This document shows positions 6,801 through 12,800 of a stretch of 15,488 nt of DNA, one piece after another. The DNA is from a candidate division WOR-3 bacterium. Lineage in GTDB: Bacteria; Hydrothermota; Tepidihabitantia; Tepidihabitantales; Tepidihabitantaceae. The DNA lies in the NCBI GenBank assembly GCA_039801225.1, contig JBDRUH010000036.1, positions 1 to 15,488 of the forward strand, in the 5' to 3' direction. Every line of letters starts with the position of its first letter. Position 1 is the first letter of the stretch. A program made the position numbers.

Positions 6801-9800
6801 GGGAACTCCGTTACCCGCCATTGCGAAAAAATACAAAGTGAGCGAGTATCATGTCCGTGAAGCGCTCAAGTTGGTGAGAAGGAAAAAGCGAGCGCAAAGA
6901 AAATAGCGGTTAACCCAAAGCGGCTTCTAGAAGACAAAAATGGGCGATACCCGGATTGAACGGGTGACCTCTGGTATGTGAGACCAGCGCTCTAGCCAGC
7001 TGAGCTAATCGCCCTGATAAATAATAGCAAAATTGCCGAGAAAGTCAAGAGTTGTCCTTTCTATTACCGAACTATGGTTAATAATAGCGGTGAGTTTTTT
7101 GTTTTTACTTTCTCAATGCCGCGGGACTTATAGATTACTTCCACCAAAGGTTGAGTCATCATTGGAACTTTTGTCCACAATAGTAACCGAGGGAGATGTT
7201 GTTGATATATGTGTGGATGGGGAAAAGGTGTTGTTGCTTGAGGGAAATGGCGCAAGAGTCGTTGTCTTAAATAGCGAATTTGCTATAGCGGAGACGATCC
7301 CATTAGAGAAGAGGCTAGTTTCGGCGCGAGGGATAACTGCGGACCGGTATTATATATATTTATACGACGACAACACCCTTTATCGGCTGGCAAAGGACAA
7401 ACTCAATATGTCAGTTTGGCTCAATAACATATCGGTAGCAGGACTGGCGAGTTATGCCCCAGGAGAAATGCTGGTGAGTGACCGGAGACGACGGATTGTC
7501 TGGTTTAAAACTCTTTTTGGTGAAAGTCGGTCCTTTCTTGAGCCGGTTGAGGTAGGTCAACCAGGGGAAATGGCAGTTTTTCCCGAGGGGATTTTTGCTG
7601 TTTTGGCAGCACCAAATCGTTTATTGAAGGTAAATCGGGCAGGGATTGTAGTTAGTTCCATTTTGGTTCCGGAAGGGGTTGACCTTCTTACTGCGGATAA
7701 AAAGGGAAGGGCTTTGGTTGCCCGGCGGGGTGAGAAGGTAATCTGGTTAGTAGAAGACGGAAGTGCTAAGGGGTTTGAGTTAACCGAGGCGACAGACATC
7801 CGGGCGATTGCAACCTTAGAGGACAAACTGATTGTCTTGGATGGGGCAAATAAAATTTTAATATTTTTCCTTCCCCACAGGAGTTCTTAGAGTTGTTGAT
7901 GGTAAGAATTTAGTGAGTTTAAAGGGTAGATGGGGGAGGGGTATTTTTTACTTTTTTTCCTTACAGTGGCCATTATACCAGGGGAGCGATTCCAGACATT
8001 TATCCTCACCGACGGTATAAGCACCGAATATCCTCTTTCTCAAACATATAAAAAGGAAGGAATTTTTCCTGTTCTTATTTTAGGAACTGACTCAGTTTTT
8101 GTTGAAGAGAAGCCATTAAACAGAGCGGATTTCTTTTTAGACTTAAGTGGTGACCGGTTAGTGCTTTTAAAGCGATTGCCAAGGTGGTCGGTAGTTAGAG
8201 TTGTTTTTAATTATATCGGCTGCCCGGGGATGAAACAGGAGGGACAAAGGTTAGCCGTTAAGTTAGGTTCATTGAAAGAGGACGAAACATTAACAATTGT
8301 GCAGCGGATTGATACGGCAAAGTTACCAGCGGCTGATGAATGGGGCATTTCCGGTAGTAAGTCATTAGGTTTCTCTCTCGGTAGCGATGAAGGGATAGGG
8401 ATTGAGCAGGCAACGAGGGTTGTTCTTTCCGGGAAGGTTGAGGATGTGGTGGTTGAGGCAGAACTTTCTGATCAGAGTGCGCCGATTCCTCCAGAAGGGA
8501 CGACATTAGAACTGGAGGAGTTAGACCGGATCATAATCAATATGCGCGGAAAGGGATGGGCAGGCTCTTTTGGCGATGTGGAAGTAGGGACAGCGGCGGG
8601 CAGTTTTGGCACTTTAAAGAGAAGGGCGACAGGCGGTGTGGTAAAAGGTGAAAGAGGTATTTTTTCTCTATCAGCAGGTTATGCCCGACCAAGGGGGAAG
8701 TTTGCCCGAGCGAGTTTTTTAGGAACTGATGGCGTTCAAGGACCTTACCCGTTGGCACCTGATGGTAGGTCGGCGCAACTGGTTCCGGGAAGTGAGGTGG
8801 TTTACCTTGATGGTAATAGGCTTGTTCGGGGCTGGGATGCAGACTATACAATTGACTATTCCACCGGAGAACTGATTTTCACCAATCGGCATATAATTGG
8901 TAGTCGTTCCAGGATTGAAGCGGAGTTTCAGTATCTTACCGAGGCTTATGAACGAAGCCAGATGGTTTTTGGTCTGGGAGTGCAACCGGGACCTTTTCAA
9001 TTTGAGTGCAGTTTCTTTCAAGAGGGAGACAACCCGGAAAAGTTTTTAGAGGAGTTGACTACTGAAGAAAAACAGACGCTCGGAGCGATTGGTGATGATA
9101 GTAGTCGTGCTTGGTTGCCGGGGGCGAAGTATGTGGGTTTGGGACAGGGCGATTATGTTCGGGAAGGTGAATATTACCGATTCGTTGGTACTGGAAAAGG
9201 TGATTACCAGGTAAGTTTTACATTGAAGGGCGATTCACTCGGTTCTTATGTTTATGATGACACGTTGGGTGGTTTTCGGTATGTTGGAGTTAATGCCGGT
9301 AACTATATTGATAGTGTCAAAGTTCCTTTGCCCCAAAGGGGTGAAATTATTTATGGTAAGACTGGCTTTGAATTGGCACGGTTTACCACTACCTTAGAAG
9401 GTGCATTTCAGCGTCGGAGTTTAAACCTATTTGCTCAAAATCAGGCAAGAAGGGATGCCGGGGCGCTGGATTTTACTTTGGGCTGGAAAGACTCTTTAGT
9501 GGCGATTAACTATCGGCATCGCAGTTGTGGTAAAGATTTTCTTCTACCAGCGGAAGTTAAAGATGTGGATTTTGCCTATCGTTGGGGTGGGGCAGAAGAA
9601 ATGGACCGGCAAGCAACCGATGAGTTTTTTACCCGGTTAACACCTTGGCAATGGCTGGAGTTGCGTGGAGAGTTAGGGAGACTGGTAAAGTTTAATAACA
9701 ATATTGTTAATCGCTTTGGCGGTGGCTGTCGGTTGGGTTGGTTTTGGGGAGAGTTTTTCCGCGTCAACGAGAGTAATAGAGTAAAAGCGACACTTTCACC

Positions 9801-12800
9801 CCGGGTTCTATGGGTTTCACCGAAAGTTGGTTGGGAAATGGAATTGGAAACACAAAAACGAGTTCGTGCCTGGGATATCGGCGGCGATGTCAAACCAATG
9901 GAAAGTTTTAACGGCGGTGCCGAATTCCGTGTGACCGAATATGCCCAACCAGATTCAGAGAGGTGGCAATTGATTAATCAAAGTCAGGTTTTGCAGGTAA
10001 ACTGGAATTGGCTGACTAAGGAGTTGGTAAGAGTTGAAGGCTTGGGTGGGATTCAAAGAATGGACTTTATTACCGTCAATGAGAATAACTGGCGGCAATT
10101 TTTTGGCACACTTATTGCCAGGTGGACTCCAAAGCGGGGTTTAGTATTTTCCACTGCGGCCAATCAATCCTATCGTCAGGTTCAACTGCGTGAGGAGCAA
10201 TTTCGTTATGTTGGAAAGGGAAATGGTTCCTACCGCCGTGATTCAATAACCGGTGGGTATATTTTAGACCCCAAGGGTGACTATGAACGGGTAGTGGTCT
10301 TTTTGGGCAAGTTTACCGCTGCGAAAGAGTTTTCTTATAACGGTGTTGTGGAAATATCAAGTTTTGAGCCGATGGGTTTTTCCGGTTCCTTCAGTTATGA
10401 GCGGATAGGTTCAGATACCGCACTTTTAAGCGAGGCAGGTAGGTTTGATTTAAGAGTTGATGTTTTTGCGTTGGAATCTTTTGTGAGTCCAGTAATTGGA
10501 TTTGCCGGCGACTTGAGTGTTGACCGCACTTCGCCAATGACCGGTAAGAGGACAACTCGGCACCAAGAATTTATTGAACTATTAACCACGAGAATATTAG
10601 ATATTGAGATACGCAATCGCTTGGAATACAACGCCTTTTTCCGTTGGTTAAGTCTTGATGAGATTGATTATGAAGAAAGGGGTTTTCGTTTCTCAGTTAC
10701 TCCAGTTATTGGCACAAGGTGGCGATTGGAGCCGGGTTTTTCTATAGAGCCCAAGGTTATTTCCCAGCCGGTTTCCTATCCAGAATTGGGTCGGTTCCGG
10801 TTGGTGACGCTGGAATCTTGGCTGGCAAATACCAGGGTATTGGGCGAAAAGACCAAATTGAGGGCTCAGGTGGGATTAAAATACCGGTGGGCATCAGTTC
10901 CTTATCTTCCTTGGGAGGTGGGCTTAAGTCAGCCGTTAGGTTGGACGCCCCAAGCCTCCTTTACATTTGAGCATCTCTTCAATGAAATTTTTCAGGCAAG
11001 CGTTCAATATACCTTTGAAGACCGCCCCGACCGGTCCACTGAGCACCGGTTTTCCTTTCAACTTCGGGCATGCTTCTAAATTTTCTTCTTGACAGAGGGT
11101 AGGCAGTTGTGGTAATGTTTTAGGTGAACTTTAATGGGTTTATGAATGGATTAATCAGAAAATACCTTCAAGAGAACCTAAGGAGGTAAATATGATGAAG
11201 ATTCAAGGTCCGCCCCGGATGGCTACTTCTAAGAAAGCGGGTAAAAAAGGCGGAATTGCTCAGTTTGCTATTCCAGTTTTGGCATTAGTAGTTGTAGTTG
11301 TGATAATAGTAATTATGGCATCGGGTGGCAAGAAGAAACCAAGGAGTGTGAGAAGAGAAGGTGGTACTCTTACCCAACTGGCGCAAGGGAGAGAGAGGGT
11401 AACCAGAGAAAGGACAGGCTCAGCGCGGGTGCGCGCTCGGGAGAGCCGGGAGGAGAGAAAGAGTGAGCGTCGCGAGGAGCGGCGGCGACTTCGGGAGGAA
11501 AGGAAGGCAAAAAGAAGGGAACGGTCGCGGCGAAAAGGAGAAACTGGCGAGCGGACTACCATCCGGAGTAGCCGAGGTGGATACACCACCAAACAGAGCG
11601 GAGTGCCGGTCCTCAAAGCAATTATCTCCGAGCCAACCGGAGAACGAATGGCGATTGTTGGTGAACGACGGGTAAAAAAGGGTGACCAGATTGAGGGGCG
11701 CCGGATTATTGATGTGGAGCAAGACCGGGTAAAGGTGGAGTATCTTACCAAAAGTTATGAGGTAAAAATAAATCAGCCACTGTATTAAATAGTTGCGACA
11801 TAGGGCACGGGATTTAATCTAACGGCACTTCAGCCACATAGGCACACAAAAGTTTGAGGTGGGGTAAGGAGTAAACCAGAGAAACCCGCCAACCAGCAAT
11901 CATTTCGGGTTGATAATTTCGGGCAAAATAGGTAAGGATTAATCGCTGATGGATAGAATCTTTCCCAAGATATTGAAACTTAAACTCCAATGGTGCCTTA
12001 ACCCCAATATTTTCTCGGACCAATTTACGCAATATCGGTTCGTTACTTTCAATGTCTTTTCTTAAATTCGTTGCTTTCTCCATAATTGGGTGATTTGAGG
12101 GCAAAGGACTGATATAGTAAGGGTAAAAACCCACTTCTACCGGCGGAGAATTGGAAGAGAAAAACCGGTTTATTTGTGAACGGTGGGGACAACAGGCAAG
12201 GATTAAAAAAAGTAAGAGAAAGAAATATTTCCGAACCGGTTTTACTGCCATCACGACGAAAATTGTGGCTCTTTCTACTTCTGGATTATTTACCACTCCG
12301 CACCAGTTTTTTTCTGATGCGGTCGGTTTTACCTTTATGCTCATATTCCAAGAGATAGTGATAGGTCCCGGGGGCTACCGGTCTTCCCCGGTTGTTTCTG
12401 CCATCCCAGGGGATGAAATGAATACCAGCGGAGTGAAATTCCTTCTCTGTCACCCGGCAGAGCAGTTCACCAACCCGATTGTAAACTGTGAGGGTAATTC
12501 TGCCATCCTCAGGCAGCCCGATGACGAATGTGGTTTTGTCCTCAAACGGGTTGGGAAAGTTGTGAATTGAAAGTTTGGGTACAAGTTTGATTTTTAGTAT
12601 AGCGCTGTCTTTGACAAGGCTATCCCGGGAGAGAAAGCCGCGGAGATTAAATGTTATAGTGGTTAACGCTCCGGTGTCACCAATTAGGCTTTGAGGTGCC
12701 TCAACCTGCAGGGTGAAATAATAGCGCCGGTAGGGTGAAACATAACCAAGGTCAGGTATGCCATTACCATTGTTGTCAGAAAGGACTTTTCCACCGGCGG

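Follow-up and report, generated by a model that had tools for sequence, protein, structure and literature searches.

The closest described systems are the SprA/Sov proteins (TIGR04189, PF14349; PDB 6H3I, 8GL6, 8GL8), giant single-chain outer-membrane barrels of 36 strands, and SprA has been called the largest known barrel (bioRxiv 2026.03.07.710327). Solan et al. (2021) describe "large single barrel" families predicted to be larger than SprA (family 002 with 40 strands, 003 with 38), plus three smaller ones. Their Table S1 lists the PDB homologues as "6H3I fragment - 6R2Q," all but one of the families are described as restricted to a single phylum, and the available text of that paper gives the large single barrels no function or T9SS link (PMC8346858). 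Three predicted 38-stranded barrels are also described in Deinococcus radiodurans (PMC9388160).

We analyzed a window of 15,488 nucleotides, contig JBDRUH010000036.1 of a candidate division WOR-3 bacterium (GCA_039801225.1), in which an earlier note had pointed to a giant outer-membrane beta-barrel gene (7930..11079). The gene, re-derived on the + strand like all features given below, encodes a 1049-aa protein ending in Phe. As claimed, this protein has no Pfam or NCBIfam match at cut-off, and its weak match to TIGR04189 was reproduced (E 1.2e-4, residues 282-333); at 19.4 bits against a curated cut-off of 200, it lies outside the range that the SprA/Sov model assigns. TIGR04189 matches are likewise weak in 29 of 43 family members, with a best E value of 5e-10. 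The source genome does carry a full-length SprA (1871 aa), located away from the barrel gene, together with 8 PorV-family and 65 CTD matches. A search of PDB sequences with the protein returned no match, and one with the family profile returned two at chance level. No paper naming or testing the family was found in a literature search for which subscription papers were mostly outside the scope and no model-organism locus tag served as a query; Fjoh_0651 was ruled out as a characterized member, the complementing fragment being 434 bp long.

A new AlphaFold model built from 71 sequences (pLDDT 88.0, pTM 0.77) agrees with the one reported earlier, and five models are concordant (pLDDT 85.7-88.0). 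The strand number, previously put at about 36-38, comes to 38 by DSSP combined with loop/turn parity: all links longer than 7 residues follow odd strands, while the even-to-odd links are all 2-7 residues long. Hydrophobic alternation exceeds the 90th percentile of background in 26 of the 38 strands. A probable signal peptide, amphipathic strands in even number, short turns on the periplasmic side, and an aromatic residue at the terminus all fit an outer-membrane barrel that is a BAM substrate. Small closed porins could be superposed jointly on the model's first strand and its last (rmsd 4-5 A, model range 143..1049), indirect support for a closure in which these two strands would pair. By formula, a 38-stranded barrel has a backbone diameter of ~67-72 A, a predicted pore slightly wider than the largest one solved.

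The protein begins with a hydrophobic stretch that is probably a Sec signal peptide (aa 1-18, 7930..7983); a hydrophobic 8-mer lies within the first 45 residues of 130 of 150 aligned members, whereas a control window contains one in 22 of 150. There follows a beta-sandwich (aa 19-99, 7984..8226), periplasmic by topology, which is a second copy of a module inserted in loop 4 (hhalign P 99.1 against aa 265-339; reversed control P 2.3) and also matches SprA 533-589 (P 98.2). A disordered linker (aa 100-134, 8227..8331; pLDDT below 50 at 101-131) has the lowest conservation of the protein, 0.18, and leads into strands 1-13 with their inserts (aa 139-533, 8344..9528). The loop-4 insert (aa 255-339, 8692..8946) is the most conserved part (0.60). 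The loop-5 insert (aa 373-469, 9046..9336) holds two Gly/Tyr-rich hairpin repeats (repeat P 97.8, though the reversed control reaches P 73), and a hairpin in loop 13 (aa 761-784, 10210..10281; conservation 0.54) is probably a third copy (P 95.8; reversed P 34.7). Strands 16-19 (9703..9846) are short, with outer loops of 2-4 residues, which by length would make a low wall and a candidate lateral opening. The last strand (11041..11076), which we take to be of the BAM beta-signal type, ends in a Phe that had been described as invariant; Phe closes 310 of 323 full-length matches, the others ending in Leu (10), Arg (2), or Ile (1).

With the whole model, Foldseek again ranked MtrB (6R2Q) first and SprA structures second to fourth (E 5e-9 to 2e-8, TM 0.22-0.23). 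MtrB and SlpA (8AGD/7ZGX), the latter ranked fifth, are large barrels with TM scores of at most 0.21; MtrB has 26 strands and SlpA is described as having 30, compared with 38 here. Whole-model Foldseek and VIA scores were dropped as proof of kinship to SprA because they are non-specific, small porins tying with the whole-model SprA alignment (Z 15.2).

Comparison by parts is more telling. Strands 1-7 align with SprA by hhalign (P 84.9, E 6e-6; E 0.08 when reversed), and strands 2-13 without the shared module are collinear with it (P 96.6, E 5.5e-10; E 0.1 when reversed), the inserts having been removed by hand with earlier alignments as a guide. In a Foldseek-independent search of 48,161 chains with a model of residues 135-500, SprA came out on top (Z 14.0; runner-up 10.9, MtrB only 8.4), with 227 residues aligned at an rmsd of 6.2, collinear with SprA 132-845. 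Clusters of SprA_N accounted for 24 of the 30 feature hits, with a score of 0.92. Foldseek with the same fragment model did not have SprA among the matches listed, nor did it after VIA re-ranking. For the first third of the barrel, at its N-terminal end, the tests by parts support a distant ancestry shared with SprA. To that extent the earlier claim of a SprA paralogue stands; for strands 14-38 there is no significant match to SprA (best P 20, E 1e-3).

Two further parts of that claim need similar trimming. The loop-4 insert is indeed the SprA module in the same topological position, between strands 7 and 8 (P 98.3 against SprA 535-586), but it carries little weight as evidence of kinship, since this small module of ~75 residues, on which the TIGR04189 match falls, is promiscuous and recurs in phage tail and adaptor families (TIGR02217 matched in 15 of 43 members, DUF2460 in 13 of 43; Z 8-9 in the fragment structure search). 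The phage structural proteins contain no barrel, and their likeness to the family is confined to the module, of which the barrel protein has two copies. "Compact" is right for length, SprA reaching ~2400 aa, but not for strand number, which at 38 (predicted) rather than 36 sets the family apart from SprA/Sov. The first ~300 residues of the SprA loop-4 insert are missing, and a 9-residue loop stands where SprA of the same phylum has its large cap insert, ~500 residues in loop 6 after strand 11. In turn, the family has loop-5 and loop-13 repeats of its own (hhalign found no SprA counterpart for loop 5, E 0.43) and the N-terminal module copy. Long extracellular inserts, the terminal Phe, and occurrence in the same genomes are common to both. 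The family may belong among the SprA-fragment barrels of 38-40 strands of Solan et al., a comparison made by descriptions rather than member lists; their PDB homologues, 6H3I and 6R2Q, are the top two Foldseek matches here. The Deinococcus barrels, from another phylum, have the same predicted strand count.

The family had been presented as conserved in its phylum. We found matches in 107 of 121 genomes of that phylum (two through the shared module alone), and three of five negatives retested hold shorter, divergent relatives; the claimed range, however, was too narrow, as the family also occurs in KSB1, Calditrichota, Ignavibacteria, and Bacteroidota, including 170 of 201 genomes sampled from one Bacteroidota class. 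Members are mostly single copy and still labeled "hypothetical," and no match was found in a plasmid collection. Lineages form their own clades in the tree, and inheritance looks vertical. In three Bacteroidota samples, none of the SprA-negative genomes (0/31, 0/4, and 0/1) has the family. Among the SprA-positive ones it is missing from 17 of 120, 27 of 197, and 62 of 110, the third sample being a single order. The 31 SprA-negative genomes are probably one lineage (five of five tested are green sulfur bacteria), and two other negatives are genomes of 0.5 Mb, so few independent losses are represented. Fisher tests of co-occurrence ignored kinship and were set aside. Within the phylum, the family occurs with no SprA match in one genome, G099, which is 77% complete. 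Three genomes that had looked like such cases (G009, G035, G530) were ruled out when SprA fragments were found in them. Because many SprA genomes lack it, the barrel is not a core T9SS part, and with 62 of 110 SprA genomes of a single order going without it, secretion of CTD proteins is unlikely to require it generally. A search for GldM gave no match in five genomes; the controls likewise gave no signal.

Taken together, we favor, at a probability of roughly 40%, a gated channel that exports large cargo as an accessory of type IX secretion, built as a 38-stranded, BAM-inserted, single-chain barrel related to SprA and inherited vertically beside it. Such a barrel would have been present early in the FCB lineage. 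Its conserved extracellular inserts (loops 4, 5, 7, and 13) would act as a lid, while in the periplasm the tethered module at the N-terminus would serve as plug or dock, and a subset of folded proteins or lipoproteins might leave over the low wall. The earlier suggestion of a second translocon is plausible as a hypothesis. In its strongest form, an ancient FCB-wide protein-conducting translocon wider than SprA, exporting folded surface proteins or lipoproteins that make up a class of their own, offering perhaps a simpler model for the origin of SprA, and missed because many SprA genomes lack it, we regard it as a tentative proposal, less likely than not. So wide a pore must be gated, and its retention implies a reason. 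This conserved SprA relative with more predicted strands, found across a Bacteroidota class and several deep sister phyla, offers a definite candidate for an unassigned export route among Bacteroidota, a way into the question of how the T9SS translocon arose, and a gene to knock out in cultivated flavobacteria, chitinophagas, or Ignavibacterium.

The gene neighborhood lends itself to another reading. Directly upstream (7033..7890) lies a gene whose product is exported, resembles NHL/beta-propeller proteins, and bears a lipobox-like Cys. Such a gene occupies this place in 47 of 110 loci, the upstream-gene clusters of WOR-3 and KSB1 types are homologous (P 99.1), and a relative contains PF01436 (E 6e-9). 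A POTRA-Omp85 gene lies directly downstream in 21 of 80 named loci, 15 of which have both neighbors. The barrel could accordingly be part of a T9SS-independent envelope module, housing or exporting the propeller (lipo)protein and assembled by or working with the adjacent Omp85, its co-occurrence with SprA reflecting shared ancestry and lifestyle. Related barrels of ~1020-1040 aa downstream of DUF11/OmpA proteins fit this, suggesting a wider superfamily that serves operon partners. Neither neighbor is adjacent, however, in most Ignavibacteria loci or the Bacteroidia-type loci read, and none of three candidate upstream ORFs in other Bacteroidota loci matched propeller profiles; we consider the module doubtful. 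When residues 19-765 were modeled together with the propeller encoded upstream, the complex scored 0.22 and 0.00 (mark 0.32, no control pairs), which speaks neither for nor against a pairing. Promoter and terminator counts (7 and 7) showed no excess over shuffles (5.9 and 6.1).

No T9SS gene recurs among the annotated neighbor clusters, a point against the favored reading. The same clusters hold no conserved sugar-metabolism genes, which counts against a barrel that serves as conduit or scaffold for some polymer other than protein (taking glycans in or out, or anchoring a surface layer) with the phage-shared module as ligand binder. That module, the most conserved part, does match phage distal-tail, adaptor, and tailspike N-terminal domains, and MtrB and SlpA are non-secretion barrels, but among solved structures the closest relative is a translocon for proteins. 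Polysaccharide channels also need far less than a 70-A barrel, and we find this reading unlikely. Less likely again is a genuine T9SS translocon working in parallel, one that would dock carriers of the PorV family as SprA does and handle a defined substrate class. The SprA homology, the nested distribution, the low wall, and the 7-12 PorV-family matches per genome in five of five genomes of the phylum would suit it; against it stand the missing cap and an N-terminal beta-sandwich in place of the extended SprA N-terminus, which is described as binding SkpA and required for transport (PMC10994853). Deletion of sprA by itself is also reported to abolish T9SS-dependent phenotypes in F. johnsoniae (PMC10936215), an argument that presupposes the family in that strain. 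It is improbable to a still greater degree that the model is wrong in kind and the chain forms a sheet left open or a pair of smaller barrels. A pTM of 0.77, coordinates not viewed, and relatives of ~710-760 aa leave some room for this, but AlphaFold2 is reported to have predicted the 36-strand topology of SprA without having seen it (bioRxiv 2022.10.09.511469), the short even-to-odd links include no inter-barrel linker, the five models agree, and the porin superpositions span the seam.

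The gene at 7930-11079 (+ strand) encodes a 1049-amino-acid protein with a C-terminal Phe. The earlier note's view of it as a real reading frame without family was borne out, as it fell below every Pfam and NCBIfam cut-off, and no sequence relative was found in the PDB. Its best matches below cut-off, to TIGR04189 SprA (E 1.2e-4, residues 282-333, reproducing the match first reported), TIGR02217 (E 0.018) and DUF2460 (E 0.06), all fall on one common stretch of about 50 residues. The terminal Phe, described as invariant, was present in 310 of 323 full-length matches and is therefore not invariant.

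A model built from 71 sequences (pLDDT 88.0, pTM 0.77) likewise upheld the description of a well-predicted giant barrel. The model runs from a hydrophobic N-terminus through a beta-sandwich (residues 19-99) and a disordered linker to 38 strands (139 to 1048), a count that leaves out short strands within inserts. The hydrophobic N-terminus was found in 130/150 members, compared with 22/150 in a control window. Even-to-odd links measure 2-7 residues (median, 3), and the long links of 85, 97, 26, 24, 18 and 15 residues all come after odd strands, which fits the expectation for extracellular loops. Hydrophobic alternation exceeded the 90th percentile of background in 26 of the 38 strands. Closed porins overlay the model's first and last strands jointly (rmsd, 4-5 Å), and this superposition indirectly supports closure of the predicted barrel. 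By formula, the backbone diameter would be 67-72 Å, versus 63-68 Å for 36 strands.

Two lines of evidence first offered for kinship with SprA proved non-specific. The TIGR04189 match reflects a promiscuous module (the loop-4 module, residues 255-339), which across 43 members matched TIGR04189 in 29, TIGR02217 in 15 and DUF2460 in 13, resembles phage adaptor folds (Z 8-9) and is present in two copies within the barrel protein (P 99.1). Whole-model structure scores do not discriminate SprA: the low Foldseek TM was reproduced (0.22-0.23) and the Z of 15.2 equals that of porins, although SprA has by far the most aligned residues (539).

Kinship was recovered in part by comparison with a profile of 21 SprA proteins from the same phylum. 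Strands 1-7 alone aligned with SprA 136-267 (P 84.9, E 6e-6; reversed control, E 0.08), and strands 2-13, with the module and other inserts removed by hand, were collinear with SprA (P 96.6, E 5.5e-10; reversed, E 0.1). A separate model of residues 135-500 (pLDDT 91.4) ranked SprA top of 48,161 chains (Z 14.0 over 227 residues, rmsd 6.2, SprA 132-845; runner-up, 10.9); SprA was not among the Foldseek matches listed for this model. Language-model features of the same part pointed to SprA_N clusters (score 0.92, 24/30 hits). Strands 14-38 gave no significant match to SprA (best P 20). The evidence for shared descent thus covers roughly one third of the barrel; for the remainder it is unproven.

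SprA itself is reported to form a 36-stranded barrel with an extracellular cap and a lateral opening to which PorV binds, while SkpA binds its N-terminus (PMC10202324, PMC10994853). Score, strand count and cap all set the barrel protein apart, so it is a SprA relative and not a SprA member. Where SprA carries an insert of about 500 residues after strand 11, the barrel protein has a 9-residue loop, and nothing in SprA corresponds to its Gly/Tyr hairpins in loops 5 and 13. Barrels exceeding SprA in size have been predicted before: Solan et al. 2021 (PMC8346858) describe five "large single barrel" families, annotated with the homologues "6H3I fragment - 6R2Q", of which two reach 40 and 38 strands, and three predicted 38-stranded barrels are mentioned for Deinococcus (PMC9388160). 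These were compared by description only, and their members may bear on novelty. A literature search found no paper naming or testing the present family.

The family is broader and larger than first described, with 2073 clusters (50% identity) at E <= 1e-10. Conservation within the phylum stood, with matches in 107/121 genomes (2 through the module alone). Beyond it, KSB1, Calditrichota, Zhuqueibacterota, Ignavibacteria and Bacteroidota are represented among the named loci (80 listed of 594 confirmed). Flavobacteriales, Chitinophagaceae and Saprospiraceae are among the sources of the named proteins, whose source annotation is "hypothetical protein" save for one label, apparently misapplied. In a tree of 56 sequences, chosen by hand and with some lineage labels inferred, members grouped by lineage (own phylum 18/18, Calditrichota 6/6, Ignavibacteria 9/9, Bacteroidia-type 10/10, KSB1-like 7/7, others 5/6), which fits vertical inheritance.

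A profile retest of five own-phylum negatives revealed divergent relatives of ~710-760 residues in three (L180:1848-4136, L181:1854-4070, L182:1396-3528), possibly smaller barrels, and SprA only in two. The single-protein search had overlooked these relatives; two come after a 283- or 359-residue gene product with a lipoprotein-like N-terminus. Remoter 1016-1040-residue relatives (L172:4134-7253, L173:4117-7164), which share strands 4-9 and the module, are another branch of the SprA-like superfamily and lie directly 3' of genes for large DUF11-repeat/OmpA-domain proteins.

The family is nested within genomes carrying type IX secretion (T9SS) yet is dispensable in many. Overlapping samples gave, for family with SprA, family only, SprA only and neither, 103, 0, 17 and 31 (phylum; 2 of the 103 with divergent members), 170, 0, 27 and 4 (class, including G352 and G422, flagged unpublished) and 48, 0, 62 and 1 (order, where G530 counts as SprA-bearing because of a fragmented copy). 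The 31 phylum-sample negatives are probably green sulfur bacteria (FMO in 5/5 tested), and two other SprA-negative genomes are 0.5 Mb each, so independent losses are few. In the own phylum, SprA matched in 116/121 genomes, with fragments in two more; in one genome, 77% complete, the family is present but SprA gave no match. The 1.5-Mb genome studied here (loci L116, L179) encodes a separate full-length SprA (1871 residues, above cut-off) on another contig and also has 8 PorV-family and 65 T9SS C-terminal-domain matches; a GldM search, run without a positive control, gave no match. Elsewhere in this genome, the family profile found only SprA (E 5e-11) and one 560-residue module-bearing protein. 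No paper on WOR-3 with type IX secretion was found.

We tentatively favor, at a probability of about 0.40, a gated channel that exports large cargo as an accessory of type IX secretion. Conserved outer inserts would form its lid, the tethered N-terminal module may serve as a periplasmic plug or dock, and cargo would leave over short strands 16-19. No recurrent T9SS gene was found among annotated neighbor clusters. An NHL/propeller-like gene lies directly 5' at 47/110 loci (own phylum 22/30, with flanks of 1.5 kb only; named 25/80), and an uncharacterized POTRA-Omp85 gene, below BamA/TamA cut-offs, directly 3' at 21 of the 80 named loci, these 21 being of KSB1 and Calditrichota type (L041:9424-11199 and 20 others); Ignavibacteria and Bacteroidia-type loci have different, variable neighbors. 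An operon-level envelope module of barrel, propeller and Omp85 is possible, if somewhat unlikely. A polymer channel or scaffold is doubtful. A true parallel translocon docking PorV is improbable. That the barrel model is wrong is very improbable.

Around the propeller-barrel pair, a tRNA-Val(CAC) gene (6941-7014, -) is divergently oriented. A 198-residue protein without family (11192-11788, +), with one N-terminal hydrophobic stretch and an Arg/Glu-rich segment, has its gene after that of the barrel in most loci of the same family (its cluster occurs at 10). A 961-residue FG-GAP/CARDB protein (12286-15171, -) with a C-terminal FlgD-Ig/T9SS-type sorting domain is a likely T9SS substrate, and a 278-residue protein without family (161-997, -), which begins much like a signal peptide and has alternating strands, resembles a small outer-membrane barrel.
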